In this document: piece after piece, positions 18,317 through 53,020 of the stretch
How positions within the stretch are numbered: position 1 is the stretch's first letter
Layout of the letters: each line of letters begins with the position of its first letter
From: Ilumatobacteraceae bacterium
GTDB taxonomy: Bacteria > Actinomycetota > Acidimicrobiia > Acidimicrobiales > Ilumatobacteraceae
Direction: 5' to 3'
Length of the DNA stretch: 64,000 bases
Assembly: GCA_044341035.1 (NCBI GenBank)
Contig: JBIISL010000002.1
Span: 16,224 to 80,223 of the forward strand
Program-made: the position numbers and the translations under genes
The notes under the pieces: model-generated
The model's database searches: none
The model's input: only the letters and a program-made list of their open reading frames with translations
Told to the model about the DNA's origin: nothing

Positions 18317-19161
18317 ACCAGCGCACGCAGACGTGTTGCAACGTCTGCTGGGTCAACGGGGTTAAAGAATTCGCCACTTGCCACTTCAACACCAGCAATA
18401 AATCTGGGTAAACCTGGCGCGCGCCACGGAGACACAATTTCGATGTTGAACCAAGCTTCTGGCCACTCATTATGTGAACGCGGCGCTTGGTTAATCCACA
18501 TCATGTAGGGAAGTGGCGCATCAAAGAGTTCATCAAGTGCCGCAAACACTCGAACCAATGTTGAGGCAAGAATCGCGCGGTCGATGGCGTTCATTTCAGC
18601 AAGGTCAGTAATGCGGTGCACAGGTGCAATACGAAGTGACACGGGGTAGACCGCTGCATATTCGCTGTACACACGCCATCCATCAATTTCAAGAATGAGA
18701 AGTTCACCAGATGCAACCTCAGGTTCCCAACCCGCAGCAATCATGCGCGCTGGGCGTGGAGGAACATGATCAAACGCGTAGATCTGACCATGAGGATGCG
18801 AAATAGTTGCGCCAATCTCTGCGCCACGGTTTTCAAACACAATGACGTACTCGCCGTTTGGCATGGCTTGCAATGCTTGCGTGCGTTCCGCCCACAGATT
18901 CACGACCGACAGTGCTTCGTCGTCCGTCAATGTTCCGAATGTTGCTTCATGGTTAGGGGAATACAACACAACTTCGCAGTAACCCTCTTCCAATGCTGGC
19001 CAACGGTTTGCAAAAGCCCGTACCGAATATGGATCGGGAGATTCCAGCCCGCCCACGCAAAACGGACATCCGGCGATTGGCAAGTTAGGCCTGTTCTGGC
19101 GGTCAGCCACCACGTGCACCACAGTGCCGAGATACGTATCGGTGCGAATCTCTTTAGTCAT
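18313..19161 (-). CDS. galT: Galactose-1-phosphate uridylyltransferase (short HIT-type)
   Basis: 282 aa. CPFC zinc-site motif and HIT-like active site SHPHGQIYAF. Sits immediately upstream of galK. Confidence 0.85.
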
Positions 19162-19241
19162 CTATTCCATTCTGTCAGTTCTCGTGAGCGTCTGCTGAAA
19201 ACAATGAGCCACACTTCTACAGCGAAGTAATTACTACTGAT

Positions 19242-20186: not shown

Positions 20187-20189
20187 TAG

Positions 20190-21218
20190 TTATGACCGTC
20201 GAAGCGATGGGGTGACAGGCATCGCATTTTGAACGGCTGATTGTTCGGCGGCCTGCATGATTGCCACAACATTGCGAGACTGCAACGCATTGACTTCCAT
20301 TGGAGTTCCATTATTAATGAACTCAACAATGGAACGGTGGAATTCGTATGGCTGCAGTGGCTGCAGCAGCGCAACGCGCGACGTTCCATCAATGTGGTGC
20401 ACGGTCAAGATTGCGGGTAAGTCGGCGACCGCTGGCTCACCAGTTGGGTCCCAATCACCAATGATCGCGCCCTCGGTACCAAGAACGTAGAACTTCGGCT
20501 TACGAGCAGCAGCCAAATCAGAATGAACAAAAGTTGCTTGCTTGCCTGTTGTGAAGGTCACCGTTACATGTGCGTGGTCAGCATTGGTTGCATGGGTCCA
20601 TACGCGTTTGTGGTTTTGCCCGCTGACATGAGCAACATCGTCAGGAATGATGTTCAGAATCTGATCAAGGAAATGGCTTCCCCAGTCGAAAATTGCACCA
20701 CCTGATACCTCAGCGTTTGAGTGCCAATAATCGCATGGGCGTGAGTACCCACCCACAAAACTGTCGTAGTGATACACATCACCAATTTCGCCTGAGCGAA
20801 TTATTTCACGCATTGTCACAAAGTCATCATCAAATCTGCGGTTCTGGTACACCACCAACATGAGCTTCTTAGCTGAGGCAAGCGAAATCAATTCATCACA
20901 CTGATCTGCGGTAAGCGCCATTGGCTTTTCAAGGACCACATGAATGCCACGCGACAGCGATTCTTTAGCCCACTGAAAGTGACTATTTGGGGGAGTCGAA
21001 ACAACAACAAGATCAAGAAGGCCAGAATCAAGCATTTCAGTTGCATCACTGAACGTTGTGGCCTGCGGGGCAAGTTCAAGGGCCGCCGCAACCCGTTCCG
21101 GGTTTGTGTCGCACACTGCTAAAAGTTCAAGACCATCTGTGTTTTGGACTGCCTGGTTATGTTCGTGTCCAATTGCGCCATAAGCAAGGAGACCTACGCA
21201 AATAGTGCCTGATTTCAT
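20190..21218 (-). CDS. Gfo/Idh/MocA family oxidoreductase
   Basis: 342 aa. VGLLAYGAIGHEH Rossmann region and VVLEKPMA motif. There is a 3-nt gap to the downstream paralogue. Confidence 0.8.
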   Translation of the reverse strand: MKSGTICVGLLAYGAIGHEHNQAVQNTDGLELLAVCDTNPERVAAALELAPQATTFSDATEMLDSGLLDLVVVSTPPNSHFQWAKESLSRGIHVVLEKPMALTADQCDELISLASAKKLMLVVYQNRRFDDDFVTMREIIRSGEIGDVYHYDSFVGGYSRPCDYWHSNAEVSGGAIFDWGSHFLDQILNIIPDDVAHVSGQNHKRVWTHATNADHAHVTVTFTTGKQATFVHSDLAAARKPKFYVLGTEGAIIGDWDPTGEPAVADLPAILTVHHIDGTSRVALLQPLQPYEFHRSIVEFINNGTPMEVNALQSRNVVAIMQAAEQSAVQNAMPVTPSLRRS

Positions 21219-43300: not shown

Positions 43301-46300
43301 ACCGCTGGCGGTCCTGCTTCGAGTTACTCGAATTACCTCGCACTTGTTCCACGTGGATTGGCTGGCGCACCGTCAGCGCTGACCGCCGTGGCAGGGGACA
43401 CCCAGGTCACATTACGTTGGGTTGCTCCAGTATCGGATGGTGGAACAGCTATCAGCGGATACAAGATTGAGTACAGCGCTAATGCCGGAACGTCTTGGAC
43501 AACTGCAACCGCAACAACTGGTAACCAAGCAGTTCTTTACACCGTGACTGGCCTTACGAATGCCACTGCATACACATTCCGTGTTTCGGCAGTGAACGCA
43601 GTAGGCGCGGGTACTGCAAGTGCAACTGCTGCTGGCACACCTTTCACCATCCCCGGAACATCAAACTCGGTGACCACGACTGCTGGAACAGCGCAAGTTG
43701 TTCTGAACTGGGTTGCTCCAGCAAGCAATGGCGGAAGCGTCATTACTGCTTATGTGGTTCAGATGACATCTGATGGTGGTGCAACATGGTCCACGCTCAC
43801 TGCATCCACTACTGCACTTACTTACACGGCAACTGGATTAACAAATGGAACTACGTATGCGTTCCGTGTGGCAGCAAAAAACCTTGCTGGTACTGGCGTT
43901 ACAACAAACCCAGTCACTTCGACTCCATTCGAAGCGCCCAACGCTCCAACAGCGCTTTCAGCAGTGGCAGGGGACACCTCTGTCTCGATTTCCTGGACTG
44001 CGCCAACAAACGTTGCTTCGACGGCAATCGTTGGCTACAAGGTGGAGAAGTCAGCAAACGCTGGAACTACTTGGAGTATTGCAACTGCAAACACAGCATC
44101 AAACTTGACCAACTACACGGTGACTGGATTAACAAATGGCACGGCCTACGCATTACGAGTAACTGCGTTGATCTCAGCCGGTCCAGGTGCGGCGTCTGCT
44201 TCAGTAAATGCGACTCCGTTTGGTGTACCAAGTGCACCACAGAGCATCGTTGTTGTATCAAGTGATTCACAAGTCACTATTTCATGGGCGGCGCCAGTAT
44301 CAAATGGTGGAAGCGTGCTGACCGGATACATCGTGCAGATCTCCACCGATGGTGGTGCAACATTTACTGATGCGGTGACGACAACTAGCACGAGCGTCTC
44401 TATTGGAAGCCTGACTAACGGAACTAGTTATGTGTTCCGTGTTGTTGCTGTGAATGCAGCCGGCAATGGCATCGTTAGTGGTACGACATCGGGTACTCCG
44501 TTTACGTCTCCAGGTGCACCAACATCACCACAGGCAGTCGGTGGAACAAATGAAGTAGTTCTCTCTTGGACCGCACCTTCATCAACTGGTGGAAGCGCGT
44601 TGGTGGGTTACCGGATTGAGCGCAGCTCAAATGGCGGAACTTCTTGGACCACAGTTGTTTCGAACACCGGTTCAACAGCAACTGCCTTCACTGTAGGCAA
44701 TCTCTCTGCCGGTGTGGTGTACACATTCCGCATTGCAGCCGTCACTAATGGTGGCTTTGGTACATACAGCGTGAACTTCACGGGTTCAGCAGTGGGTCTC
44801 GCAACAGCACCGGGTTCTTTGACCGCGAACGCTGCAACAAGTCAGGTGACATTGTCATGGACAGCTCCTACCTCTACTGGCGGAAGCACTGTTGCCACCT
44901 ATGTGGTGGAAAAGAGCGCAGACGGCGGCGTCACGTGGTCCACCGTGACAACAGCTGCAACAGGAACCTCTTACGTGGTTACCGGACTTACAAATGCAAC
45001 AACATACTCCTTCCGGGTGAGTGCAGTTAATGCGAGTGGTGCAGGTATTTCATCTGCGCCAGCAACAGCAACGCCATTCACAACTCCAGATGCGCCAACC
45101 GGACTTTCCGTAATCGCAGCAACATCGCAAGCTGTTTTGGTGTGGACAACACCAGCAAGTGATGGAGGAACCTCAATTACCGGTTACAAGGTGGAGCAAT
45201 CCACTGACGGTGGCACAACGTGGACATCGCTAGTTGCGAATACTGGTTCTGCATCAACGGTCTATGTGGTCTCTGGCCTCACTAATGGAAGTGCGTATCG
45301 ATTCCGTGTTAGTGCAATTAACTCTGCAGGTATTGGAATCGCATCAACGATCGCAACCGCAACGCCATCTGGTACTGCAACAGCTCCACGATCTTTGATC
45401 GCGACCGCGTCTGATGGCCAGGTTGCACTCGCATGGGTAGCACCTTCTTCCACGGGCGGTAATCCAGTGACTGGTTACTCCATTGAAGTGAGTTCTAATG
45501 GCGGCACATCGTGGACAACCCTGATCGCCGACACCGCTTCAACTACAACGAGTTATAGCGCAACTGGTCTTTCTAACGGAACGACGTATGCGTTCCGAGT
45601 ATCTGCAATCAATATCAATGGTGTTGGTGCCGTGAGCTCGCCCGCTTCTGCTGCACCTTTCACAACGCCGGGACAAGTCCCTGCAATCACAACTACCGCT
45701 GGCAATGCACAGGTGCTTCTCTCTTGGACAGCACCAACGACTGATGGTGGTGGCGCGATTTCCGGCTACAAGATTGAACGCTCTGCAGACTCTGGTGCAA
45801 CCTGGTCAACCTTGACAGCGAACACCAATTCGGCTGCAACGAACTACACAGCTTCAGCTCTAATCAATGGAACTGTGTATTCATTCCGTGTTTCGGCAGT
45901 GAATGGCGCTGGCACCGGTACAGCCAGTTCTAGCGAAACTGCAACCCCATTCGCTGGTGCTGCTGCGCCAACTGCTTTGAGCGCAACTCCATCCAGCACT
46001 CAAGTGGTGTTGTCCTGGACTGCCCCGAGTGCAACTGGTGGATCTGCAATTGTCGGTTATCGCATTGAATCCACTGTGAACGGTGGAACCTCCTGGTCAA
46101 TAGTTGTTGCTGATACTGCATCAACGGCAACGTCGTACATCGCAATCGCACTAACTAATGGCCAGCAATATGGTTTCCGCGTTAGTGCAATCAATGGTGC
46201 AGGCGTAGGCGTTGCCAGTGCAGTTGCTACCTCCACTCCGTTTACTGTCGCCTCCGCACCAGTGTCGGTAGTGGCAACGCCTGCTGATACGCAGGTTCTC

Positions 46301-49300
46301 TTGACATGGGTCGCTGGTGCATCAAATGGTGCATCAATCACGGGTTATGTCATCGAATTTTCTAGCGATGCTGGTGCAACATGGTCAACAGTTTCTGCAA
46401 ATACAAATTCAGGACTGACTCGCTACACCGTGATAGGGCTCACAAACGGAATGTCGTACACATTCCGTGTTGCTGGTATTAACCAGGCAGGAACTGGTAC
46501 TTCCACTTCGAGTAGCGCAACTGTTCCTGCGGGAGCGCCGTCTGCACCGTTGTCGTTGGTTGTTGCTCCGGGCAACACTGCTGCAACATTGACATGGACA
46601 GCACCATCAACTGATGGTGGTTCGCCAATCATTGGATACCGCATTGAACGTTCGGTGAACTCGGGTGCAACCTGGACAATAGTGGTTGCAGACTCTGCTT
46701 CTTCCAGCACTTCCTACACCGCAACTGGTCTCACGAATGGTGCTAGTTACAACTTCCGCGTTAGTGCGCTGAACGCTGTAACGGTCGGCGCTTCAAGTCT
46801 TGCTGGTTCAGTAGTTCCTGCTGGTGTGCCGGTAGCGCCAACGTCGTTGTCAGCAACTGCAACAAATACAGCAGTTGTTCTCGTATGGACGCGTCCGCTG
46901 AATGATGGGGGCAATGCAATTGTTGGCTATTTGGTGGAGACATCTAGTGATGGTGGCGCCAACTGGACAACTGCAATTGCAAATACAAACTCAACAGTTA
47001 CATCCACAACAGTTACTGGTCTCACGAACGGTTCGCTATACAGTTTCCGCATCAGCGGTATTAATGCTGTGGGTTCTGGCGCAGCCAGCACTGTCATCAC
47101 AGCAACTCCTGCAAGTGTCCCAACTGTTGCGCAAAACCTCATTGCAACAGCATCAAATGGTCAAGTAGAACTGTCGTGGACTGCGCCAGCAACGAACGGT
47201 GGCAGCAGTGTTACTGGTTATCGCATTGAGCGTTCGACTGATGGCATCACGTGGAATACCATCTCATCTGGCACTGCGGCAACTACCTACACCGTTACTG
47301 GATTGACGAACGGTTCTACGTATATGTTCCGCCTTGCTGCAACCAACGCAATTGGTGACAGCGCGATGACGGCTGCAGTCACTGCTAGTCCAGCGGCTTC
47401 TGCAACTGCCCCTCAAACATTCGTTGCCACAGTAGGGGATCGTGCTGCCACATTGACATGGGCTGCTCCAGCATCAAATGGCGGTATGCCTGTCCTTTCC
47501 TATGTGATCGAGCGCCTAAATAGTGATGGTTCCACGTGGGCTGCTGAAGCAAGTGGTGTCGTTGGTTACGGATACTCCGTAACTGGTCTGACGAACTTTG
47601 TTGGGTACATGTTCCGTGTCGCCGCGATCACTACTTCAGGGAAAGGTGCGTGGGCAACAATGTCCAGTCCAGTCACCCCATTCCGTGCACCGCCGTCTCC
47701 AGAAACACCAGCAGTGCCAGATGCACCAACAGCGGTAACAACCACTGTTGAGTCGGGCCAAACATCAATTGTCTGGACTACTCCTGCAAGCGATGGTGGT
47801 GCTGCCATTTCTAGTTACATCGTGGAACGCTCCACAAACGGAGGCACTTCATGGACAACGGTTGCTAACACAATGGCGACGTCGTTTATTGCAACAGGTC
47901 TTACAAACGGCGCGACGTACATCTTCCGAGTCACGGCTGCGAACTCGGTTGGCAATGGCTTGCCAAGTGTTATGGCCGTCGTAACGCCAGCAACACTCGC
48001 AGCGGCGCCGACCAACATTTCCATCTCGACTGGTAATGGTCTCTTGTCCTTCTCGTGGCTCGCACCTGCAAGCACCGGTGGAATGCCAGTTGTTTCGTAT
48101 GTTGTTGAAACCTCAGCAACAGGTACAAGTGGTTGGAATACTGCAAGCACAGGGTCTCCTTCAACGTCATTGGTGATTGATGGCCTTACAAATGGCACAC
48201 CTCTCCACATGCGAGTTGCTGCTGTAACAGCAATTGGACAAGGTGCGTGGGCCACTGCAGTTGGCACACCAAGCATTGGTGCAGTTGCGGGAATCTCAAC
48301 CAATGTGGTTGCAACTCCGGGTGCTGGCCAGGTCGCATTGACATGGACTGCTCCGGTAGCTAAGGGTGGATCACCAATCACTGGCTATCTCATTGAGAAG
48401 TCTCTCGATGGAAACTCGTGGATGGTTGTTACTTCCAATACCGGAAGCTCACTGACTTCGTACAACGTCACAGGCTTGGCAAATGGAACAACCACATACT
48501 TGCGCGTGAGCGCAATCAACGGTGCTGGAAGTGGTTTGCCGACGGGTGCTGTCACGGTTACGCCGTTGACTACAGCGAATGCTCCTCAAACCCTTATTGC
48601 CACAGCCGGTAATACACAAGCATCACTTGCATGGGTAGCGCCTACCGATAACGGTGGATCTGCAATTACGGGTTACACCATTCAGGTGTCATCGAACTCT
48701 GGTGCAACCTGGAGCAACATGGCAAATGTGGTGGGTACTTCTTACACCGCAACAGGACTCACCAATGGCACCAGTTATGCATTCCGTGTTCTTGCAATTA
48801 ATGCTGGTGGTGCAGGTAGTGCATCGGCTCCCGATGTAGCCGTGCCATTTGCAACGTCAAGTGCAGTGCGCAACCTTCTGGTTGCTGTTGCAGATAGCCA
48901 AGTCACTGCAAGTTGGACCGCACCTCTATCCAATGGTGGTTCTGCTATCAGCGGATACCGCGTTGCATACAGCACTGATAACGGCACAACTTTCTCTGCA
49001 GACACTGTTGTCAACGGAACAACAGCAGTCATAACGGGCCTGACAAATGGGTCAGCAGTAGTTGTTCGAGTCATTCCAGTGAACGCAGCAGGAAACGGAG
49101 CATCAACATCATCAGCTGCTGCGACACCACGCACAGTTGCTGCGGCTGCATCTGCAGTTGTAGCAACAGCAGGAAATGGGCAAGTCAGTCTCAGTTGGGT
49201 TGCACCAACGGATAATGGTGGATCTGCAGTAACGGGTTACTACGTTGAACGCGCGGTAGGTGCTGGAGGATTGTGGACTCGTATCGCAACCGTCACCACT

Positions 49301-52300
49301 ATGTCGCATGTTGCAACAGGCCTCACAAATGGCACGACGTATGTTTTCCGCATCTTGGCAACAAATGCCGCAGGTGCAGGTGCTGCAACAGAGCAAGTAC
49401 TAGCAACGCCGTCTACAACTCCAGGTGCTCCAACTTCAGTGGCAACTGTTGCCGGTGATGGGTTTGTTACCTTGACATGGGTTGCTCCAACTTCAAACGG
49501 TGGTACAACTGTCACGTCGTACCTCATTGAGAAGTCAACTGACGGAACAATGTGGACAACAGCGGCAACAACATCGGCTCGTGAATTTACGGTGACTGGT
49601 TTGGCAAACGGAACTTCATACCGTTTCCGTATCAGTGCAGAAAATGCTGCGGGTACTGGTGCATCGGCACAAGCAAGTTCCACTGTCACGCCAAGTGCAA
49701 AGGCCACGGCTCCAACATCGGTGACTGCGACCCCATCAAATGGCGCAATCGCATTGGCCTGGGGAGCACCAACTGATACCGGTGGTTCTGCCTTGACGGG
49801 TTACATCGTTGAACAAAGTGTTGACGGGGGTATGACATGGACAACCGCAGCAACAACTGCAACACCATCGACATCGCTGACTGGCTTGACCAACGGAACG
49901 ACCTACTCGTATCGAGTTCGTGCGAACAACTCCATCGGGTCAGGCGCTGCATCAACTGTTATGACAACTACGCCGTTCACGGTTCCAGGCGCACCACGCA
50001 ACGTTGCGTCCTTCGCCGGTGATAAGGAAGTTCTTCTCACGTGGGGAGCGCCACTAAACACCGGTGGTTCGGTCATCACCGGTTACGTTGTGCAACAGTC
50101 CACGAATGGAACAACATGGACAACTGTTGAAATGCCATCGGTTGCTTCAACAACAATCACTGGTTTGACCAACGGTACGACCTATTCATTCCGCGTGTTT
50201 GCAGTAAATGCTGCCGTTACAAATATCAATAACATCGCAACATCTGGAGCAACCGCTTCATCTGTTGTAACGGGGATTCCGAAGACAACAGCATCGGCAC
50301 CACAATCGCTGACACCTGTTTCTGGGGATCGTCAGATCTCACTGTCGTGGACAGCGCCAGTTGATAACGGTGGCGTGGCTCTCACCGGTTACAGCGTCCA
50401 GCGTTCAGCTGATGGTGGGCGCACTTGGACAACTGCAGTTTCGACAGCATCTTCAGTGCTGACCGCGACAATTAATGGTCTTACCAATGGCGTTGCATAT
50501 GTATTCCGTGTTGCTGCAATCAATGCGGCCGGTGTGGGCGCGGCAGGTACATGGGTGACAGCTGCACCTGTAGCTGCGCCAGCAGCACCTGCTTCCGTCT
50601 CTGCAACCGCTTCGGCGTCAAGTGCAACTCTGAATTGGTCACCTCCAGTCGACAATGGTGGTGCATCCATTATTGGTTATCGGATTGAGCAATCAGAAGA
50701 TGGTGGATCAACGTGGGGGACCGCCGTCCAATTGGGCGCCACAGTTCAAGCGCAGTCAGTGCGCAAACTGACATTGGATAATGCAGGTCTTTCTACTTCG
50801 ACTTCTTTACAGGTCACTGGCCTTCAATCTGGTCGCTCCTACCTATTCCGTGTGCAGGCGTATTCAGTTGTTGGCGAGAGCCCATGGAATCAAGTTGCAG
50901 TCAAGGTTGGCTTGGCCCCAACTACACCGGGCACACCAAAGTTGACTCCGTCAAAAACTTCAGTTGTGGTGTCATGGGCAGCGTCAACTGCAGCGGGTGT
51001 ACCTAAATACACAGTGCAGCGTTCCAATGATGGCGGCAAGACGTGGACAGATGTGGTGACCACGAGCGAGACGACTATCACTGATGATGGTTTAACCTCT
51101 GACGCTTCGTATTCATATCGAGTATTTGCCGAATATGCGGGCATGACCTCCAGTAAGTCTGGCGCCACCACTACTAAAACTCTGATACCTGCTGAATCAG
51201 TTCCAAATCCAACATTCGAAATCAACTTGGTATTGCGTTCAGACGTGGTTCCCACTTCTCGTAACTTCACTGTTGCAGGTGCAAATTTGAAAGGTGCTTC
51301 TTTAGTGAAGTTGTACCTTGCAGAAGTGCTTGCTACGCCCGCAGTTAACTCCGCGGCACTTCATAGGCGTGTTTTTTCAGCATTGGGTCCTGAAACGCTT
51401 CTTACGACCGCAACCGTAAATAAAGACGGCACGTTTGTGGCAACAGCCAGTTTGCCAGCCTCGCTAGCAAAAGGTAATTACAGAATTACTGCCAGAGGAA
51501 CAGCATTCAATGGTGATCCTGTGACTTCATCTGCTGATTTCGTTGTTCCGGCCGACTGGGCAGAAATTCTTAATCCGTCGACGCCTTCGACTTCAACAAC
51601 TTCAACAACTTCAACAACATCAACAACGTCGACGACTTCGACCACGGTTCCCGCAGTAACCCCGATAGTTCCGCCCAAGGCAACGCCGGGTGGTGCGCCA
51701 TTCGATCCGAAGAGCGATCCGAAGGGCGTCGTTGGTCTCGCTGGTCAAGCAGCGGTGTTAGCTGCATTGCTGGCGGCTGGAGCAGCAAAACGTGGCAAAA
51801 AAGAAGATGAAGAATCAGGCGATGATGAAGATCGCGGTTCAGGAGACATCTCTGATACCGCGGTGAAATTCCGAAAGACTGATGTCGATGGTTCTAACGA
51901 CGCAATTCAGCCACGGACCACACGATGGCTAGATAAGTGGTCATTAAAGTCCCCACACCGTCTGGTGCAATCGTCGCCACTACTTGCTCGTCTTGTTGTG
52001 GATGGAACGTACCTTCGTTCACTGTTGGGCATCTTCTGGTTGGCATTGCCGTTCGCAGGAGTTGTCCTCGGAATCCTTTCCGCAGTAGATACGGAATTCA
52101 ATATTGTGATGCCCGCATTTGCGTTGCTCGTTTCGATCTTAATTTTGGGAATTCTTGATGCGTTCTCTGGTCTTCTTGGAGTACTGGTCTTTGCGGTACT
52201 CGCCGGAATCGGAGGAGGATTCACTTCGTCTGATTCCCTCCGAGGAATGCTGGGACTGTGTGCATTCTCTCTTGGAGTGCCACTGATTGCGACAGCATCA

Positions 52301-53020
52301 CGACCGTTCTTCCGCGCAAGTGATGGAACATCTCAGATTTGGAACCGGACGGTTGACTTCTTCTTGGTCACACTGTTCGGTGCCTTGGCTGCCGGTGGAA
52401 TGTTTGGCTCACTGCCTGGCCTCACCGGCTTCAAACCTTCATATGCAGATCGTGGAGACACGATTCAACTGATTGCTTTAGGAATGCTCATTGTTCGAAT
52501 TGGACTCGAGTATCTCGCACGCAATGCAACGTCGGGACGATTCAAGTCAATTCATCCCGATGAGCTTTCGGATCCTTCGTTGGTGCAGAAAATTACTTCA
52601 ATCATTGGTCGTTCCGCAGTGTTCGCATTTGTCGCCGTTATCTTCATCGGCAATAACTGGGCACTGTGGGTGGGAACAGCGTTGTACATGATTCCAAAGT
52701 TCGTAGATCTCGTGTCCGATAGTTTCTTGAACTTTGCAAAGTTGCATCGCTTCTTGCCTCGAGGCATTTTCAAGGTTGTCTTCATCATGTTTATTGCACG
52801 CTGGTGGGGCTCAGTAGTGGCTGACCAAGTAACCGACCCGGATCAAATGATCAAGGTTGGTTTTGTGCTGCTTGGTCTGCCTGGGCTGATAGCGGGAATC
52901 GCATCTTGGTTTGGTCGAGAAGGCGGCGATTGGAGGAGTTCGAAACTTACACGTGTGCTTGGAGCAGTACTCCTCGTCATCGGAATTCTGATGGTTAGAG
53001 GAGTTCTCTTCAACTTCTGA
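22367..53020 (+). CDS. Giant (10,217 codons) surface protein: signal-like N-terminus, about 87 fibronectin-III-like modules, 3 LamG-like domains, an Ig-like domain, and a C-terminal polytopic membrane anchor
   Basis: One open frame of 30,654 nt. N-terminal hydrophobic segment MRVVLALFIAASTALPFMPSMIALA|DV. Modules of about 95 aa repeat the FN3 hallmarks (L[TS]W..P..[DN]GG..I.GY.[IV]E.S.DGG.TW ... GLTNGT.Y.FRV.A.N..G.G). The start is ambiguous: GTG 22367 (GAAGGG 8 nt upstream) or ATG 22466, just before the hydrophobic segment. Confidence 0.95.
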   Translation: MKLLILGGSFPTPTSAASRTSVINQLNREARRVMRVVLALFIAASTALPFMPSMIALADVTNNNNNVAPGTSNNNSSNGSPVGTNNTITPTVTPVTTPSRTTPPVALPSVPSGLLVAPDNQKLTLSWDTPDVNEKISGYAVSWSLDGRTWTPNSQARTSTNTSVVLEGLTNGVVVYVQVAAINSSGTGGSISTSGIPAALASAPRGAAVVATPASGAPYADAVLANSPAGFWQFGDDPSHTIADNLGTGTLTGIPAFGMPAPIGGMIAGYLQGKELTSNVSVGGSFTLEGWINPSTINGDAATVAHVGDTTNGSYMRVTPSGALQFVGFANGVASKVESVRGLVPSGSWSYLVATYSAGEVVLYVNGERVGAGTSAGTGGVFVIGGANDSGFTYTGSVANFAVYSTVLVASDVSAHWTAANYQLGTGNIPSARAGDAFVIVEWTSPVSDGGSRILGYNVQVNTPAGWVDAISNTFSSSTSAFVTQLEDGTRLSNGTAYQFRVRAVTSVGAGNASEAVTATPRGLAAAPTEFGVSVPTLGNVTFSWSAPLNDGGFAVTGYRIEISSDNSSWRTYASASADTTTFTMGDVVTGTPFADEVYYFRVRAESSAGAGQTSVGISVAPLRVEQPVQTQSVLVDNGQPSLAFAGEQSVLSAEAVIIESVVRAYATGGVPGRVESLVATATNGGITLTWATPTDLGSGAVTSYVVQSSTDGAVWTNVNASATSPYAITALTAGTQYVYRVYAVNATGTGTPTSVIAIAGGNTAGNYASAPTGSNATAGSIPVSGTGNTASYTTAVLADTPTGFWTLSDASGATSVTDSGSAGVSGTTTSVTLGGTTNYSPLATSQLAASFNGTSSKIVVPDNAAWNSNNLTAEAWIKPAATQVTNWGSVVSRNTGSNGWWVEVTSAGQLWGYVNGVSLITASGVISPNKWQHIAMTYNGNAINLYVNGVVVATIAAPNIATQTLGTPIQIGTRNTTAMNFFSGLISNVALYNTALSDARIQNHVQAGGYAANTVSAPTVIAGDGVATLTWTAPAYANGAITGYEIQTAPAISGGAVANVSVWTTVATSTATSSTVSQTMAASGGTSFRVRAVTSNGAGQWSIPAQTYVFSNPTPPTNLSATSSSNNQVTLTWVAPITTSSRFTIQTITGYRIETSSNGGVTWSTITPSTGSTALTYVIDGVANGVSRLFRVAALTASTTGAFASISVTPGAVASSPRNFTATGTGDGSLSLSWTAPLNTGGSPILSYILDYCTSAGCTASIVIDSGVPASATSYNVTGMLNQQGGITFRLRAVTASGTGDAATVVGRTAPQVSAPNALTAVADVTWEGLSNQAYLTWSAPTLLYGQTVVGYQYEQSSDGGATWIVLNNLITSSTLAAYVQGLSAGTTYQFRVAARTSQGLGLYNYVSVTPTGSSTYSGSIASAPVNLRATVDGASTVLLTWAAPTYTGGLPLLGYRIKYLSTVDPAAATTGVVDTLVPAGVTSYRLSGLPTGSNYFVRVTPVTAVGEGNYAAVGFVQYDTPSSPRTLTSTPGDGTVTLAWTTVGTTGGYNVYGYRVEQSGDGVNWTVLTLDTSALSFTARGLNNGSTYQFRVAAVTAVGIGDYANIVSTPFAVPNAPLNLIATPGNEQVTLTWTAPANNGSAITQYIVETSVDQGSTWSETARVVGATNTTFTHTGLFNGGQHGVNWYYMYRVRAVNNAGTGPVSTSAQTNPGNTPSSVAALDGTAYNSMVHLTWTCCLGDTSRGSYYVGPSLAVVAYRIEQSTDGGATWQFILDRPVAYSWVRISALRNGVAYQFRVSAINSIGVGTPSVITVTPSTTPDSPTNMAVVTTASGTSATATVTWTAPVTDGGLPLTGYRVRWCATANCNPTTVISEALSPTTYSFVVSGLSTGTPYNISVEARNANGFSVYQTQIPVFPVGLPTAVTALTTSVANTVTITNPDGTTGTGTYLTVSWTEPNATSGIPVFYKVELSADSGSTWTTLTDETTSLEQRWAPNPALAGTQVQFRVTPTNFAGTGPSTTVTASVPLQSIAGPPSKPSPPTLLSAMRGDQQVTLSWALPVATGGLPVTGYKVEYSSSSSTTGFITINNNTATSPFVITGLTNNISYWFRVSAVSAAGTGTTAITATVVNGAPAAPSAFAYTATANAQSTLSWTAPSTSSTGGAMAGLNGYRIEQSIDGGSIWTLLTASTSAVASGITVTPPATGVTIRYRVAAIADGQRGDWAYVSATGTSTLAGVLALSATATSNSVTLSWGAPAGGAAVSGYKIERCLYSGTTCGAYTLLVASQTGLTYPDTTPVYGSVYGYRVTANSTANLASILPVHVVGSPGSVTGLVSTPGSEIVDLAWVAPTQSPAPVILGYRVEICSSACASSSAVWTFLRDGGTSLAAHIDGLTNGVSYTIRVVARNAWGLSTPVTTTFTPRGAPASPGTLTATPGNRQVTLNWTTPTNNGGSPIIGYKVEYGTNSAFAGLNVVSSLSDPNSTSFVVTGLNNATSYWFRVSAVSGVATSAGQLTSAIPVGVPTAPVSATVTTTLTVRNALFVNWGAPSNNGGSAVVGYRIEQSTDGTNWTTAVANTGTTTQWSARGLTNGQAYQFRISAMNSNGYGTPTTVSGTPMFAPSIPLNQNVIAGDRRATVSWSAPADNGGSPISGYRIEACVESSANYCTNAGVFAVVNANTGLVNSYTMTGLTNGTLYGIRVYAINDVDMNSYQYAYEYLLVRPSSTPIAPNTTYTTTGNRYVILNWGGATANGYVITGYKVEQTADNGATWTTISTSVSGTTVPETLRINGLTNGVVYGYRVSAISYAGVGLPSGIAYGTPRMTTSAGVPNLRATVGDSRISLTWSSPTDTAGAAIVGYRIEYVAAGTTTVVTENTLSLSTNYTVFGLTNGISYTLKVYPVTSNGYTNAGEVVARPQTIAQAPREFMSVWGDRQVSLRWTAPAAAGANVDQIFGYKLEQSTDGATWSPMATVNPSVVSYVVTGLTNGVNYSFRISMVTTVGQGASSVTSSTPFGTPSAVQDLVGIGGDRKVDLSWNAPADLGGGNVVGYRVFIYCASGSDSGVGTGCGPYTVNTYTLIAANISPAQRSLTVNGLINGTNYLFLVQPLTGVNTALNTWITCEGYFRDGQSAPLATDTARCSQYSRVLWITPMGSPSAPKGLNVMTAPSGSSTKASVTATLTWTAPDWTGGDYINGYRIEQSTDGMTWTTLTANTGYRLTLTYTVAGLVPGTRYLYRVSAIGSLGAVGVGSVVTTGSLVASDAPQGLVITRVNNSNTAQLSWTAPAYTGGSSVIGYKIERLLSAVWYVVTPNTGNTNTTFTIDGHDAGTALNVRVSAVTSAGAGDTAMAILEVGGVTNGGLRFTTTVGNGFADIGWSGTAAFTPTSYKMEYRVVGNAIWTLVTADMGATTSYRLGGLSNGVSYEVRVTPIYTVSGVTSYGTASNTFIVPANVASAPANLSATTGNAMTTLTWTAPADLGGGSVIGYKIEQSTTSATTGYVVLTANTGSNALSYDVRGISNGTQHWFRVSAITTLTAGVAGATSFVSVTPVLPGRAVGTISAAPGNTTALLTWSAPQYDDVNTDFIGYRIERSTDGINFTTLSANVGKVLTYTATGLTNGTPYWFRIVTLGQLVDGGSSVISTVPAAYSAKLGSLTATISDRTVTLNWTRPADTGGLPLIGYMISRCYYAASTYCDMSSTNYWYYYWSHSFRGINDAITGIAFVGPDATSFTFNADTADFYRVVPVTGTGVWIGTTGSTYSNFPNASMVYAAWWGVPSQVNGMKITTNSPGGVGAANSMLYFDWTAPTILGNGTISGYDVEQSNDGGLTWISLGRTKLTNQYVSGVSAGTSVVLRVRAVNEYGVGPWSSVTSSWAANPTSPRTPNITVVGGRMTFTWASPENTSAMGVQGYEVQYNLAGTWNTYTGTGAGFTATSLQWNAPDNTYYTNMQWRVRTVTVNAANTTLYSDWATASGNILGTANAPYTTVTPANGNVTLNWNAPTDLGGGTLMSYRVDHSTDGVTWVADGTTTLTSMVVRGLTNGTNYRFRVTPVTTQGDGTAAVLTGTPFGPSSAPSLLRANSGDGFVTVNWNVPTNSGGLPIAGYQIDLCTFASCTWTTYVRNSGSASTNTYTFSGLTNGTRYQARVSAVTGACDETLTDTVASCNYYGATVLSTPATVPSAPQSITASVTTNTYGVPTASGTVTLNWAAPASTGGQTIYGYMLEQSTDAGTSWTVINANLGTNDGVPLLTATLTGLIPGTVYTYRVTPLTSEGMGASSTTSIVAPSWPATSTVPNMVGGAVVTTTATAITVTWRTPVAPLPTGYKVEISAVGGTFVAAWGTWAGQTTSANMAATTTTVGAGVTSVTIVGSAGSPTSLTTGASKYVRITPTNAAGSATATVVNATPMSIATAVRPTSATAGDSQVALVWAAPTSNGGFVVNSYRMEYSTDGAPWTTLTLDASGTSYTVKGLTNGTPYTFRMAAITSAGLGAWGTFTSVTPARIPLSPLNIVVTGGDKRATLSWAAPTSNGGSAITGYAIYRNNVLITTVSASTLTYVDTNSTTGLTNGTSYYWSVRAVNAIGESVSSNVYGTPYSQIGAPTGVLAVRGNRQVTVSWTAPANTTGFTLTGYQVERSVNGSTWTLDSMVTASPVTITNLTNGVIYYFRVTAYVNGGPSASPGGLGVVSAAASATPMTAATAPTSFTAISGNGSVALSWSAPQDPGGAPVSAYQINQCLVVLGGAQCNVAGQYSTIVTSTNSTGTTYTVSGLTNGSTYYFTVSAITSFGVGTASYIYATNATPGTTPTAVQALDALPGDGRSMVTWTAPASNGGYTLMGYKVERSSDNGTTWVLLNISTNYTYYNDTSVMNGVTYTYRVSAQNALGYGTPMTTAVIPFGPAAAPANLSTVAGNAQATINWSVPSVDGGTAILGYKVEQSTNNSTWTVLSANAGLGTSFVATGLTNGTPYYFRVTAVTAFATNTSSTATALPLATATAPTSFAASIDATGGVVLTWAAPSSNGGSAISYYVVQRSTNGSTWVDVAQPSGLTTTVNGLTLGTGYSFRIAAITSVGTGSYATASATPVSNPGAPQNLVASIDANGVVTLTWATPANNGGSAIVGYAIERCNNTQNSCTPATVVTTTCPSTTAFCVVNANNGGSTTAVVQPTAGSTVMTFAVTTLTSVNSATGLATSRQVSGGLITVVVPQLTVTTTASAPTNLVATAGNASTSLAWTVPSSLGSPVPGSYTYTLQRSTDNSNWTTVSSTITSATLTYSDTGLTNGTVYYYRIAAVSSAGTGAYAATSARPFTTASAPASITAALQDAAVLITWTAPTSTGGLSVTNYVLDVCTTSAVACVAGASTGFTTVSGTVPTDSLSYVVSGLTNGTQYWFRVRAVTSAGNGTGIVATATPGGAPSAVVALTTTAANTGNVALSWTAPATNGSAITGYKVEMCTANCATNGTFTLLGTTTALTPFVSSPLPNFTCTSITACSANAGLAGLINGTSTTFRVSAINAIGTGYGSLAVAVPFTLAASPTGSAGTITANPTNADNYGASVTTDAPTLWYRLNNASGATAVTDASGTPRTSTVGSSVTFNGNAGSPFGGTSGSATFNGAAGSAAAYPTVAPTTPINLAGAISTLSGNDLKISGSVTLEAWIKPAAGASNRWQTIVSRGNSGVSTRNYGLFINGSQVYFGFNTSAGLQGAFTQSGVAEASVWSHLVGVFDQTTGLVRIYVNGQLQASAFATQSGALVTSAVGEVLIGNSYNADAPTPFFAGQMSEVAIYNKAVTGARILAHYNASGIAAQGKTAPSVTPNGSSLTLNWTAPTNTGGLAITGYKIDYVLPSTAIAANTGAAWSVLIADIGSTSTTYTLNSAVTSALGQGYMFQVSAITSAGVGASSLPVGPIGTAAAPSEPRSFAAVGGTAQVALTWTAPASTGGLTVSGYTIERSADNGITWTSVGATTASSPFVTGAVPGFTCSAIAACIDGTTAMLPGASFQYRIAAITPAGNSSYSVASAGPANTVTALLAVAGNAQVSLSWDIMPTTAGQTVAGYFVEYCTGTCTATTGTYTAVTAIAGAPTNGTTPNSYITATGLTNGTIYTFRVRAVYGASNTRGPAVIVTGMPVASAQISVQLLNSTASTTTMALNWLAPVAVVGNTIAGYLVEYCAANCGVAGATFTTATPVAGTPTGATTTLLSYNIAGLTTNNTYAFRVTPVLVAGSTGVASPSVVFDTPTASVDAPTAMQAAGRLNSVYVSWAPPATRGGYPILGYRVEYRVNNTGNWVTATTNSYSSTPNYAVAGLTAGVTYGFQVTALTAAGPGATSAPVTGVPFGAAAAPTNLRASASSGQAAIQWETPTSNGGNTITGYRIESSVDGGTTWSDEVANTNSVATAYTLTGLDNGVTVLIRVSAVTSAGSGQVSNVAPAIPSAPASAPTNVSAIVGNAQAVLTWTAPADTGGLPVTGYMIERSADGTTWSTVTANSGNPVPASVQSGLTNGETYQFRISAITAGGTGVASAPFTVKPYTTPSAPTSFVAQPSDGQITMTWGVPAVDGGAVVSDYRVEQSLDGGITWTAAATSTGGTRQATITGLTNGTPILLRVFALNTAGVGTPTQSISTSAYTIPAAPNALVASGANASVLLSWTAPTNTNGSPVSGYKVERSIDAGTTWTVAIANTGNSGTNVVVNDLTNGTAYAFRVSAINAAGAGDASGSTGATPMTTASAPTAVTGTGGDTTATISWSLPTIDGGTAITDYNVERSSDGGVTWTSVASNIVGTSYSDTALTNGITYLYRVSAVNAAGTGSSSAGVAVVAAARAGASTGLVATSGSGSVILSWVSPTDTGGAAITGYFIEISEDSGDTWATAIANTNTSAAFAVVSNLAEGQLYSFRISAINAAGIGTTSTNVDGTPVIVSSVVLSGTANSENVSLTWTAPTDIVQTGYVVEKSADGITWTPAMLNPGANATSGTASGLTNGTVYFFRIQVVTAGGPASSYSNYLALVPRGLAGAPSALTAVAGDTQVTLRWVAPVSDGGTAISGYKIEYSANAGTSWTTATATTGNQAVLYTVTGLTNATAYTFRVSAVNAVGAGTASATAAGTPFTIPGTSNSVTTTAGTAQVVLNWVAPASNGGSVITAYVVQMTSDGGATWSTLTASTTALTYTATGLTNGTTYAFRVAAKNLAGTGVTTNPVTSTPFEAPNAPTALSAVAGDTSVSISWTAPTNVASTAIVGYKVEKSANAGTTWSIATANTASNLTNYTVTGLTNGTAYALRVTALISAGPGAASASVNATPFGVPSAPQSIVVVSSDSQVTISWAAPVSNGGSVLTGYIVQISTDGGATFTDAVTTTSTSVSIGSLTNGTSYVFRVVAVNAAGNGIVSGTTSGTPFTSPGAPTSPQAVGGTNEVVLSWTAPSSTGGSALVGYRIERSSNGGTSWTTVVSNTGSTATAFTVGNLSAGVVYTFRIAAVTNGGFGTYSVNFTGSAVGLATAPGSLTANAATSQVTLSWTAPTSTGGSTVATYVVEKSADGGVTWSTVTTAATGTSYVVTGLTNATTYSFRVSAVNASGAGISSAPATATPFTTPDAPTGLSVIAATSQAVLVWTTPASDGGTSITGYKVEQSTDGGTTWTSLVANTGSASTVYVVSGLTNGSAYRFRVSAINSAGIGIASTIATATPSGTATAPRSLIATASDGQVALAWVAPSSTGGNPVTGYSIEVSSNGGTSWTTLIADTASTTTSYSATGLSNGTTYAFRVSAININGVGAVSSPASAAPFTTPGQVPAITTTAGNAQVLLSWTAPTTDGGGAISGYKIERSADSGATWSTLTANTNSAATNYTASALINGTVYSFRVSAVNGAGTGTASSSETATPFAGAAAPTALSATPSSTQVVLSWTAPSATGGSAIVGYRIESTVNGGTSWSIVVADTASTATSYIAIALTNGQQYGFRVSAINGAGVGVASAVATSTPFTVASAPVSVVATPADTQVLLTWVAGASNGASITGYVIEFSSDAGATWSTVSANTNSGLTRYTVIGLTNGMSYTFRVAGINQAGTGTSTSSSATVPAGAPSAPLSLVVAPGNTAATLTWTAPSTDGGSPIIGYRIERSVNSGATWTIVVADSASSSTSYTATGLTNGASYNFRVSALNAVTVGASSLAGSVVPAGVPVAPTSLSATATNTAVVLVWTRPLNDGGNAIVGYLVETSSDGGANWTTAIANTNSTVTSTTVTGLTNGSLYSFRISGINAVGSGAASTVITATPASVPTVAQNLIATASNGQVELSWTAPATNGGSSVTGYRIERSTDGITWNTISSGTAATTYTVTGLTNGSTYMFRLAATNAIGDSAMTAAVTASPAASATAPQTFVATVGDRAATLTWAAPASNGGMPVLSYVIERLNSDGSTWAAEASGVVGYGYSVTGLTNFVGYMFRVAAITTSGKGAWATMSSPVTPFRAPPSPETPAVPDAPTAVTTTVESGQTSIVWTTPASDGGAAISSYIVERSTNGGTSWTTVANTMATSFIATGLTNGATYIFRVTAANSVGNGLPSVMAVVTPATLAAAPTNISISTGNGLLSFSWLAPASTGGMPVVSYVVETSATGTSGWNTASTGSPSTSLVIDGLTNGTPLHMRVAAVTAIGQGAWATAVGTPSIGAVAGISTNVVATPGAGQVALTWTAPVAKGGSPITGYLIEKSLDGNSWMVVTSNTGSSLTSYNVTGLANGTTTYLRVSAINGAGSGLPTGAVTVTPLTTANAPQTLIATAGNTQASLAWVAPTDNGGSAITGYTIQVSSNSGATWSNMANVVGTSYTATGLTNGTSYAFRVLAINAGGAGSASAPDVAVPFATSSAVRNLLVAVADSQVTASWTAPLSNGGSAISGYRVAYSTDNGTTFSADTVVNGTTAVITGLTNGSAVVVRVIPVNAAGNGASTSSAAATPRTVAAAASAVVATAGNGQVSLSWVAPTDNGGSAVTGYYVERAVGAGGLWTRIATVTTMSHVATGLTNGTTYVFRILATNAAGAGAATEQVLATPSTTPGAPTSVATVAGDGFVTLTWVAPTSNGGTTVTSYLIEKSTDGTMWTTAATTSAREFTVTGLANGTSYRFRISAENAAGTGASAQASSTVTPSAKATAPTSVTATPSNGAIALAWGAPTDTGGSALTGYIVEQSVDGGMTWTTAATTATPSTSLTGLTNGTTYSYRVRANNSIGSGAASTVMTTTPFTVPGAPRNVASFAGDKEVLLTWGAPLNTGGSVITGYVVQQSTNGTTWTTVEMPSVASTTITGLTNGTTYSFRVFAVNAAVTNINNIATSGATASSVVTGIPKTTASAPQSLTPVSGDRQISLSWTAPVDNGGVALTGYSVQRSADGGRTWTTAVSTASSVLTATINGLTNGVAYVFRVAAINAAGVGAAGTWVTAAPVAAPAAPASVSATASASSATLNWSPPVDNGGASIIGYRIEQSEDGGSTWGTAVQLGATVQAQSVRKLTLDNAGLSTSTSLQVTGLQSGRSYLFRVQAYSVVGESPWNQVAVKVGLAPTTPGTPKLTPSKTSVVVSWAASTAAGVPKYTVQRSNDGGKTWTDVVTTSETTITDDGLTSDASYSYRVFAEYAGMTSSKSGATTTKTLIPAESVPNPTFEINLVLRSDVVPTSRNFTVAGANLKGASLVKLYLAEVLATPAVNSAALHRRVFSALGPETLLTTATVNKDGTFVATASLPASLAKGNYRITARGTAFNGDPVTSSADFVVPADWAEILNPSTPSTSTTSTTSTTSTTSTTSTTVPAVTPIVPPKATPGGAPFDPKSDPKGVVGLAGQAAVLAALLAAGAAKRGKKEDEESGDDEDRGSGDISDTAVKFRKTDVDGSNDAIQPRTTRWLDKWSLKSPHRLVQSSPLLARLVVDGTYLRSLLGIFWLALPFAGVVLGILSAVDTEFNIVMPAFALLVSILILGILDAFSGLLGVLVFAVLAGIGGGFTSSDSLRGMLGLCAFSLGVPLIATASRPFFRASDGTSQIWNRTVDFFLVTLFGALAAGGMFGSLPGLTGFKPSYADRGDTIQLIALGMLIVRIGLEYLARNATSGRFKSIHPDELSDPSLVQKITSIIGRSAVFAFVAVIFIGNNWALWVGTALYMIPKFVDLVSDSFLNFAKLHRFLPRGIFKVVFIMFIARWWGSVVADQVTDPDQMIKVGFVLLGLPGLIAGIASWFGREGGDWRSSKLTRVLGAVLLVIGILMVRGVLFNF
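23018..23640 (+). other. LamG/concanavalin-A-like jelly-roll insert 1 of the giant protein
   Basis: PYADAVLANSPAGFWQFGDDP ... FTLEGWINPS ... GSVANFAVYSTVLVASDVSAHW. This start/middle/end pattern recurs in all three inserts and matches what I know of Laminin_G_3-type domains. Confidence 0.7.
24740..25400 (+). other. LamG/concanavalin-A-like insert 2
   Basis: SYTTAVLADTPTGFWTLSDASG ... LTAEAWIKPA ... GLISNVALYNTALSDARIQNHV. Confidence 0.7.
38998..39750 (+). other. LamG/concanavalin-A-like insert 3
   Basis: NYGASVTTDAPTLWYRLNNASG ... VTLEAWIKPAAG ... GQMSEVAIYNKAVTGARILAHYN. Confidence 0.7.
41050..50900 (+). repeat. Regular, cysteine-free sub-array of about 34 FN3-like modules (period about 288 nt)
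   Basis: From ...DAPTAMQAAGRLNSVYVSW... to ...SYLFRVQAYSVVGES, each module follows the same template: AP..L.A..G..Q..L.WTAP...GGS.ITGY.IE.S.DGG.TW......T.....T.TGLTNGT.Y.FRVSA.N.AG.G. Confidence 0.8.
51577..51647 (+). repeat. In-frame 9-nt tandem repeat (ACTTCAACA-like units) encoding STSTTSTTSTTSTTSTT
   Basis: tcgacgccttcgacttcaacaacttcaacaacttcaacaacatcaacaacgtcgacgacttcgaccacg, read directly. It lies between the Ig-like domain and the first C-terminal TM helix. Confidence 0.85.
51728..53017 (+). other. C-terminal membrane module of the giant protein: a TM helix, a charged acidic linker, then a domain of about 10 hydrophobic helices
   Basis: VVGLAGQAAVLAALLAAGAA followed by KRGKKEDEESGDDEDRGSGD. 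From about 52020 onward there are successive hydrophobic stretches of about 20 aa (LLGIFWLALPFAGVVLGILSAV, IVMPAFALLVSILILGILDAF, GLLGVLVFAVLAGIGGGF, ... VLGAVLLVIGILMVRGVLF). I found no LPXTG-like motif. Confidence 0.75.

Follow-up and report, generated by a model that had tools for sequence, protein, structure and literature searches.

The 64,000-nucleotide stretch of an Ilumatobacteraceae bacterium genome analysed here (contig JBIISL010000002.1; the whole stretch is called the window below) carries one giant open reading frame (ORF) whose product starts as a long secreted fibre of FN3 domains and ends in a polytopic membrane module. The module is conserved in hundreds of other proteins, has no match outside its own family in the libraries searched, and is genetically linked to fibre proteins in two forms, either fused to the fibre or encoded by a separate gene directly after it. 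We consider, with about even confidence, that the last ~600 amino acids (aa) of the giant protein form a dedicated membrane base that would hold the fibre where the two are fused and dock it where they are split. This reading is based on the terminal position of the module, its variable cargo, the occurrence of several copies per genome, the existence of split forms and the lack of a sortase signal. We rate the module as a protein family and fold not previously described, which would serve the membrane anchoring of surface fibres; our literature search found no description of it.

The membrane end of the giant fibre protein

The frame is uninterrupted over 10,217 codons, with the fibre and the membrane domain in one ORF, and the window contains a single copy of the module. 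A frameshift making the module a separate gene, which an earlier sequence-only reading of this DNA had kept in view, is absent from the window. The listed GTG start puts 33 residues (22367-22465) before a typical Met and signal peptide, and the true start is more likely Met34 at 22466, so that the annotated length should perhaps be 10,184 aa rather than 10,217 aa. The N-terminal segment is probably a Sec signal peptide. It is followed by the fibre, for which the Pfam scans returned at least 59 fn3 matches and two Laminin_G_3 matches within aa 1-9,800. The 30.6-kb gene would take up about 1.5% of a ~2-Mb genome (the contig of a related metagenome-assembled genome, MAG, has 2,023,427 bp), a cost that implies strong selection.

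None of the usual anchors of surface proteins was found. A regular-expression scan of the last 700 aa detected no LPXTG, LAXTG, NPXTG or LPXTA, and the sole loose match to a sortase motif was LPFAG, which lies within the transmembrane (TM) helix TM1. Moreover, 410 residues are still to come after the stop-transfer helix TM0, whereas an LPXTG anchor ends in a short basic tail. Pfam scans of the whole giant protein revealed no SLH domain, and the signal peptide (MRVVLALFIAASTALPFMPSMIALA/DV) contains no lipobox Cys. The sequence-only reading had stated that the protein lacks an LPXTG-like motif and carries a covalently attached membrane module in place of a sortase, lipobox or S-layer-type anchor, and these results agree with it on every point.

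Hydropathy analysis (19-residue Kyte-Doolittle) located a hydrophobic segment at aa 9788-9806 (nucleotides 51728-51784), followed by the charged stretch KRGKKEDEESGDDEDRGSGD... and by further segments at aa 9886-10215, as had been read from the sequence for the TM helix and the charged segment after it. An AlphaFold2 model of the last 373 aa, made with a 71-sequence alignment, consisted of ten long helices (mean predicted local distance difference test, pLDDT, 85.2; predicted template-modelling score, pTM, 0.80). The model of the last 605 aa added a beta-sandwich near the membrane and a disordered region between TM0 and the helical bundle. The positions of these parts are given in Table 1.

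Table 1 Features of the giant gene, its membrane base and the neighbouring genes (window coordinates)
Feature	Position (strand)	Remarks
Giant ORF	22367..53020 (+)	10,217 aa; listed start GTG at 22367; no internal stop
Probable Sec signal peptide MRVVLALFIAASTALPFMPSMIALA, aa 34-58	22466..22540 (+)	Hydropathy peak at aa 33-55; cleavage site predicted
Extracellular fibre	22541..51202 (+)	At least 59 FN3 matches and 2 Laminin_G_3 (Pfam scans)
Membrane-proximal immunoglobulin-like (Ig-like) beta-sandwich, aa 9613-9727	51203..51547 (+)	AlphaFold2 strands E6-115; conserved together with the module
Thr/Ser/Pro-rich spacer LNPSTPSTSTTSTTSTT...PPKATPGG	51569..51694 (+)	Low pLDDT
Juxtamembrane collar APFDPKSDPKG	51695..51727 (+)	Family motif P-[YF]-[DN]-P-x-[SD]-[ED]-P
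TM0, stop-transfer helix VVGLAGQAAVLAALLAAGAA, out to in	51728..51787 (+)	Family-wide 42% Gly/Ala/Ser
Cytoplasmic linker, 73 aa, charged, disordered	51788..52006 (+)	Amphipathic helices at its end (TTRWLDKW...SPLLARLVVDG)
Polytopic membrane module, aa 9881-10217 (337 aa)	52007..53017 (+)	Ten helical hydrophobic segments; family unassigned
Kinked helix pair H2a/H2b, probable re-entrant hairpin from outside	52118..52210 (+)	31 residues
Invariant Asp9931 at the H2a/H2b kink	52157-52159 (+)	Motif LDAFSG
Cytoplasmic RPFFR loop, then W-x-R-x-x-D	52301..52357 (+)	Arg9994 and Asp9997 invariant
Outer-face loop LPGLTGF	52412..52432 (+)	Conserved
R-x-x-L-E in TM5	52496..52510 (+)	Arg10044 and Glu10048 invariant
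Outer-face turn FIGNNWALW, TM6-TM7	52643..52669 (+)	Conserved; scan pattern for genome loci
LacZ-type GH2 beta-galactosidase, galK, galT, two GFO/IDH/MocA oxidoreductases	14409-21218	Directly before the giant gene
Protein of 884 aa: N-terminal signal/TM segment, two Lamin-tail domains, CotH kinase-like domain	56535-59189 (-)	

The topology was deduced from the distribution of positive charges. Averaged over 185 sequences, the numbers of Lys and Arg residues were 11.3 in the linker, 0.1 in loop 1-2, 0.0 in loop 2-3, 3.8 in loop 3-4, 0.8 in loop 4-5, 2.4 in loop 5-6, 0.1 in loop 6-7, 2.1 in loop 7-8, 0.2 in loop 8-9, 2.4 in loop 9-10 and 0.5 in the C-terminal tail. In the linker they are accompanied by a mean of 11.2 Asp and Glu residues, and the pLDDT falls below 50 at model residues 196-225. 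In the H2a/H2b pair, DSSP breaks the helix at one residue only (model residue 87); since both flanking loops have close to no Lys and Arg, the pair should return to the outside, as the alternation of inside and outside loops would otherwise fail. H2a/H2b is thus probably a re-entrant hairpin with its kink at Asp9931. These counts point to a topology of TM0, nine crossings and one re-entrant hairpin with the C-terminus outside, in which the conserved Arg/Asp/Arg/Glu cluster would lie close to the cytoplasmic face. The estimate of about ten hydrophobic helices in the sequence-only reading therefore stands as far as the number of helical segments in the model is concerned, although the charge counts suggest nine membrane crossings rather than ten.

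No relatives of the module were found among known families. We searched Pfam, NCBIfam, PDB sequences, PDB folds (350,542 chains) and BFVD. The last 473 aa had no Pfam or NCBIfam match at E ≤ 1, scans of 43 and 19 further family members gave nothing significant, and the only recurrent match, to TMEM174 (E ~2e-3 in 10 members), was read as compositional and rejected. The family profile retrieved only noise from the PDB sequences (E ≥ 0.36). With the module alone, Foldseek found no match in the PDB (best E 0.89, probability ≤0.16, template-modelling score, TM-score, ≤0.23) or in BFVD (best E 0.43). With the 605-aa model it returned no match reaching E ≤ 0.001; the hits were Ig-like folds only, obtained through the membrane-proximal domain (adhesin extender, RbmA, CopC), and were weak (best E 1.8e-3). 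The module was also checked against GT-C and O-antigen-ligase folds, and neither the Foldseek search of the PDB, which is expected to include GT-C structures, nor Pfam (families such as PMT and Wzy_C) gave a match. An internal repeat or inverted symmetry was not found either, the N-terminal and C-terminal halves aligning with an hhalign probability of 0.07. The failure of the sequence-only reading to assign the region to a family thus extends to searches by profile and by predicted structure.

The module family and its hosts

A word-indexed search returned 88 homologues, every one labelled 'hypothetical' and none with a Pfam domain. When 1.84 billion cluster representatives (clusters counted at 50% identity) were searched with a hidden Markov model (HMM), 5,292 proteins reached E ≤ 1e-3, of which 1,699 also passed E ≤ 1e-10 and 569 E ≤ 1e-30; the E ≤ 1e-3 tier may hold matches to the Ig-like domain only. 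The window protein itself scored 543 bits against the module profile (hmmsearch). Because the hydrophobic pattern is conserved in hundreds of homologues, it is not due to chance. The sequence-only reading had regarded a membrane module of this size on an FN3 fibre as unusual; the arrangement is no isolated case but the rule in Ilumatobacteraceae, and the family comprises at least 569 clusters at 50% identity.

The host proteins were 333 to 5,995 aa long among the matches listed, and in 198 of the 214 full-length matches (the listed HMM hits and the 88 homologues of the word search) the module ended no more than 10 aa from the C-terminus. The ectodomains are diverse and include fn3, BNR, beta-helix and Big_3_5 domains, and many members have clear N-terminal signal peptides. 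The module was found in three phyla, Actinomycetota, Chloroflexota and Dormibacterota. A scan of the GTDB species genomes with the pattern FIGNNWALW gave 49 loci, nearly all of them in MAGs of Ilumatobacteraceae and other Acidimicrobiia from lakes, the closest relatives having 86-88% identity; other named members belong to Nanopelagicaceae, Rhodoluna, Marmoricola, Solirubrobacteraceae, Chloroflexia and Dormibacterota. In some genomes two copies with different ectodomains are present (loci L016/L031 and L026/L050). At 30 of 44 related genome loci the module frame contained no stop between the match and the beginning of the fetched locus, and in 17 of these the match was preceded by 1,000 aa or more; the frame of L008 is open for 3,643 aa.

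The alignments revealed that the module is conserved together with the Ig-like domain, a variable spacer, the collar, TM0 and the linker. The Ig-like domain has the consensus V-x-V-x-G-x-G-F-x-P-N-S-x-V-x-V-W ... G-x-H-x-L-T. The collar is less strictly conserved (Tyr/Phe 76%, first Pro 79%, second Pro 66% and Asp/Asn 57% in 185 sequences), and the linker, a charged stretch of ~75 aa, closes with S-P-L-x-A-R-x-x-x-D-G-x-Y-L-R. Within the module, the Asp of LDAFxG, RPFRR, W-x-R-x-x-D, LPGLTG, R-x-x-L-E, FIGNxW and P-R-G are invariant or nearly so, and of these motifs the window protein carries the LDAFxG Asp, RPFRR, W-x-R-x-x-D, LPGLTG, R-x-x-L-E and FIGNxW, in this order and at its C-terminal end, which is the full set of family motifs looked for in it. 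The minimal form, found in Chloroflexia (L053) and Dormibacterota (P0084), is a protein of ~660 aa in which a signal peptide and a single Ig-like domain precede the remaining parts of the unit. The spacer between the Ig-like domain and the collar, which is (T-S-T)n- and Pro-rich in the window protein (51569-51694), differs widely in length and composition among homologues and looks like an O-glycosylation-type linker.

Two features of the public records concern the annotation of the family. In L007 (1-10011) and L008 (3-10934), small antisense 'genes' replace plus-strand ORFs that are open for 3,323 and 3,643 aa, respectively, and the called product consists of the last 613-664 aa only. As a result of such fragmented gene calls, family members appear in databases as proteins of ~600 aa. 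Furthermore, modules of the Ilumatobacteraceae type, with 40-61% identity in the best aligned segment, occur in MAGs labelled 'Bifidobacterium' (L021, L040, L044), 'Limnohabitans' (L036) and 'Flavobacteriia' (L057), which suggests that these bins are mislabelled or contaminated.

Fibre and module encoded by separate genes

Free-standing homologues of the membrane domain, which the sequence-only reading had proposed to look for, do exist, and they follow directly after fibre genes, so that here a separate gene links the module to a fibre. In Nanopelagicaceae they are proteins of 534-596 aa with a signal peptide, a short ectodomain, a Y-D-P collar, TM0, the linker and the module. In all 69 loci of this type, among them L058 from a complete Nanopelagicaceae genome as well as L001, L002 and L059, which are more distant, the module gene stood directly after the gene of a secreted fibre protein that lacks a TM anchor, and in 65 of the 69 the two genes shared a 4-nt ATGA overlap. 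The fibre proteins of the split forms bear their own signal peptides. The upstream partners, of which the shortest has 225 aa and the longest more than 5,805 aa, end in ..ATVTGLKPGQKVKVTV and a Lys-rich C-terminus, with the tail consensus A-T-[VI]-[ST]-G-L-K-P-G-Q-K-[VI]-K-V-T-V before the Lys-rich end.

When the mature ectodomain of the free-standing proteins was aligned to the fused Ig-like domain, the match was confined to the C-terminal strands of the latter (profile positions ~58-92 of 97-101). In the Ig-like domain of the window protein, the place of the split is taken by the B-C loop, which is long and of low confidence. When the true upstream tail was added, the profile-profile alignment was extended from 34 to 64 columns and its score rose from 30.6 to 33.3 (E 1e-5), whereas reversed or unrelated tails gave no extension; the upstream tail alone mapped to the A/B-strand positions 27-43 (P 0.04). 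These alignments are suggestive of a mode of docking in which the Nanopelagicaceae fibre would complete the Ig-like domain of the membrane protein with its C-terminal hairpin.

After the half Ig-like domain, the free-standing Nanopelagicaceae proteins have an invariant F-C-K-D...W-D-x-x-C-P element with two Cys (A4 positions 73-87), absent from the fused forms, which could be a disulfide-stabilised addition offsetting the split. In the related loci L001 (7524-8561) and L002 (7655-8728), a 345-357 aa protein without Pfam match is encoded directly after the free-standing module gene and is followed by HlyIII and rpsL-rpsG; L002 also encodes a 421-aa Gly_rich_2 protein. The 345-357 aa protein might be a third component in this lineage.

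The second type of split was found in a Rhodoluna-like lineage (L142, L143), where the gene of the module-only protein P0416 (378 aa) overlaps by 4 nt with that of an upstream 1,885-aa protein. The latter ends with ..APVAFDPMTSPEG, an Ala/Gly-rich TM0, a Ser/Gly linker and ..SFWN. Since the upstream protein thus retains the collar, TM0 and the linker, the split in this lineage lies in the cytoplasmic linker. P0413, a further candidate for a linker split, proved to be a fused gene truncated where its contig ends and was rejected. At four other loci, reading frames that overlap by ~20-300 nt were observed just upstream of the base unit or inside it (L005 1244-1544, L007 9812-10011, L006 10001-10022, L140 8001-8058); these may be assembly frameshifts or real gene breaks.

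Possible roles of the module, related systems and genomic context

If the last ~600 aa are a membrane base, the N-terminal signal peptide would start Sec export of the ~9,750-aa FN3/LamG fibre, TM0 would halt the transfer, the charged linker of ~73 aa would remain in the cytoplasm, and the remaining helices would insert so that the C-terminus ends outside. TM0 would then pack into the bundle, and the Ig-like domain and the collar would rest on its conserved outer face, formed by the hairpin Asp, LPGLTGF and FIGNNW. Such a base, sitting in the cytoplasmic membrane of a monoderm actinobacterium (Ilumatobacteraceae, acIV lineage), would serve as a wide foot that bears the load or, with a fibre made as a polypeptide of its own, as a socket for docking.

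Several observations weigh against a simple base. The Asp, Arg, Asp, Arg and Glu residues are invariant over three phyla, and a plain anchor would need none of them; the probable re-entrant hairpin would be equally superfluous. The fibre protein of the linker-split form already has a TM helix, which means that the module must add more than hydrophobic anchoring, and the linker split itself is known from one lineage in two assemblies, 1 nt from a fused frame. As for docking by strand complementation, the profile-profile gain was 2.7 score units, the gains with single-sequence HMMs were 1-3 bits, and in most of the ten loci tested with these HMMs the best shuffled tails reached or exceeded the observed score. 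A second activity, for instance the binding of an ion, a lipid or a wall precursor, is suggested by the buried, invariant Asp and by the Arg/Asp/Arg/Glu cluster, which also lend plausibility to the proposal of the sequence-only reading that the module could be more than an anchor. The module may be an active machine of new fold, that is, a sorting enzyme cutting at the P-[YF]-D-P collar or a transducer gated by force or ligand; we hold this to be possible but not probable.

Of these two machines, an enzyme for sorting or processing that works in cis or on a dedicated partner, with a logic like that of exosortases or rhombosortases, would treat the collar, TM0 and the charged tail as a tripartite signal and cut near P-[YF]-D-P, so that the fibre is released or moved to the wall or to a lipid. 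The layout, a motif ~6 residues outside the membrane, a TM helix and basic residues, does resemble C-terminal sorting signals; in L142 this signal ends the fibre protein and a translationally coupled module gene comes next, as in sortase/target pairs; and catalysis could be provided by the conserved acidic residues, one of them a buried Asp that can be reached from outside. The module has, however, no invariant Cys, His or Ser. Neither Pfam nor NCBIfam relates it to the exosortase, rhomboid, CPBP, S2P (site-2 protease) or prepilin-peptidase families, and there is no fold match: the check for an EpsH-type exosortase or archaeosortase gave no profile match at E ≤ 1 and no Cys or His among the invariant columns, and that for the GxSG Ser and His dyad of rhomboids and rhombosortases no invariant Ser or His and no profile or fold match. 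In addition, the collar is only moderately conserved (see its Asp/Asn and first Pro frequencies above), the 'tail' of ~75 aa has conserved motifs of its own whereas sorting-signal tails are short, and an enzyme fused to its substrate would turn over only once. We therefore regard this explanation as unlikely. Autocleavage at the D-P bond of the collar, as in GDPH motifs, was also considered and dropped, as the collar Asp is not invariant and the next residue is variable. A signal transducer or channel that would report fibre tension or ligand binding to the cytoplasm, by analogy with adhesion G protein-coupled receptors (GPCRs) or polycystin-1, seems distinctly unlikely to us; it takes up the channel and the mechanosensor proposed in the sequence-only reading. 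In its favour are the invariant intramembrane Asp at the probable re-entrant hairpin, the conserved charged cluster and the conserved cytoplasmic motifs RPFRR, R-x-x-L-E, LPRG and GD-x-S-x-x-WR-x-P, and the split within the juxtamembrane beta-sandwich in Nanopelagicaceae recalls the non-covalently associated N-terminal and C-terminal fragments of GAIN domains. Yet no channel, GPCR or mechanosensitive family resembles the module (the Foldseek values for the module alone apply here too), a cytoplasmic output domain is absent, no conserved signalling gene lies nearby, and the analogy is conceptual only.

The suggestion of the sequence-only reading that the module exports or assembles its own ectodomain is very improbable in our estimation. 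The tight genetic linkage of the module to giant secreted proteins would fit it, but the fused module is made last, after ~9,800 aa that must by then have engaged with Sec by way of the N-terminal signal peptide, the fibre proteins of the split forms bring signal peptides of their own, and the module has no similarity to SecDF, YidC, ABC or type VII secretion system (T7SS) components. Least credible is an ordinary transporter or permease fused by chance, or a fusion produced by an assembly error or frameshift. The Joint Genome Institute (JGI) name 'MFS family permease' on four members (P0300, P0449, P0452, P0455) and the frame breaks near the junction in the public contigs L005, L006, L007 and L140 could be taken in its favour. 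We rejected the annotation as a major facilitator superfamily (MFS) permease, as no MFS profile, repeat or fold similarity was found: the module has no Pfam match to MFS or any other transporter, the Foldseek matches to MFS structures had E > 1 and TM-scores ≤0.21, and the hhalign comparison of the halves speaks against a 6+6 repeat. Since the fusion or adjacency recurs in hundreds of independent sequences from three phyla, both versions of this explanation are effectively refuted.

Among known systems, the single-pass C-terminal anchors of giant Gram-positive surface proteins and anchoring by sortase and LPXTG are nearest in function, and none of the systems compared below is homologous to the module. 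A single-pass C-terminal membrane anchor of a giant Gram-positive surface protein is known from Ebh of Staphylococcus aureus, which likewise has an N-terminal signal peptide, a very long repetitive stalk and a C-terminal TM helix with a charged cytoplasmic segment, and does not involve sortase. In contrast to Ebh, the window protein has a conserved 337-aa polytopic bundle after TM0 and an Ig-like domain with collar before it, and this unit is a family of its own that is sometimes encoded by a separate gene. The exosortase/PEP-CTERM, archaeosortase/PGF-CTERM and rhombosortase/GlyGly-CTERM systems pair a polytopic protein with a signal made of a motif, a TM helix and a charged tail, in dedicated gene pairs; no similarity to them in sequence or fold was found, conserved catalytic residues of the Cys/Arg/His or Ser/His kind are absent, and in most cases the module and its 'substrate' are one fused protein. 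In adhesion GPCRs and polycystin-1, a giant ectodomain with Ig repeats is followed by a juxtamembrane beta-domain, which can consist of two non-covalently bound pieces, and by a polytopic domain. The likeness is one of layout, as there is no homology, no GAIN domain or GPCR proteolysis site (GPS) motif, and the host is bacterial. The retention modules of LapA and MpIBP, RTX adhesins of the type I secretion system (T1SS), hold a giant repetitive adhesin at the envelope through a dedicated terminal module engaging a membrane protein; those adhesins belong to diderm bacteria, are exported by the T1SS and are retained N-terminally in an outer-membrane channel, whereas the protein in the window would be exported by Sec in a monoderm and held by a C-terminal module in the inner membrane. 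Donor-strand complementation is known from chaperone-usher pili and other split beta-domains. The C-terminal beta-hairpin of the Nanopelagicaceae fibre appears to complete the Ig-like domain of the membrane protein in a similar way, but here two strands from another gene product would complete a membrane-tethered domain, as suggested by profile alignment. Finally, fibrillar adhesins of actinobacteria are by default anchored through sortase and LPXTG (Monzon et al. 2021, PMC8286594). This anchoring shares with the window protein the attachment of large stalk proteins at their C-terminal end and the order of motif, TM helix and basic residues; the window protein has no such motif, its TM helix is not terminal, and it would be attached to the membrane rather than to peptidoglycan.

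Monzon et al. (2021, PMC8286594) note that no anchor is known for about half of the fibrillar-adhesin-like proteins. The module does not appear in a survey of giant genes that does refer to TM regions (bioRxiv 10.1101/2023.11.21.568195). The membrane base would supply an anchor for hundreds of surface proteins in Actinomycetota, Chloroflexota and Dormibacterota, and the presence of the conserved domain as a separate gene after a fibre gene suggests that very large proteins are mounted on the membrane in a manner not yet described. Its hosts include dominant freshwater bacterioplankton, namely Ilumatobacteraceae (acIV), Nanopelagicaceae (acI) and Rhodoluna-like Luna bacteria, in which surface structures are thought to matter against grazers; they may also act against phages. 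A study of Nanopelagicales (PMC12817590), which cites Tarao et al. 2009 on grazing resistance, ties cell-surface microdiversity to predation avoidance. Should the module instead prove to be an active machine, the Actinomycetota most abundant in fresh water (acI, acIV, Luna) would possess envelope machinery of a new class. The natural split forms are ready constructs for studying how a 10,000-residue fibre is held on the membrane, and defining the family would mend two recurrent faults of public data, the fragmentation of giant ORFs by gene callers and the 'MFS permease' annotations.

No conserved downstream or neighbouring gene was found among the fused loci, where synteny was local and limited to close relatives; on the downstream side, which was the side compared, it was not common even to relatives with 86-88% identity. 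This is consistent with a location of the giant gene in a variable region. Its neighbours in the window are metabolic (gal operon, lacZ, a beta-lactamase fold, CotH). The 884-aa Lamin-tail/CotH protein, which has no C-terminal TM helix and no LPXTG motif, is another secreted protein encoded near the giant gene.

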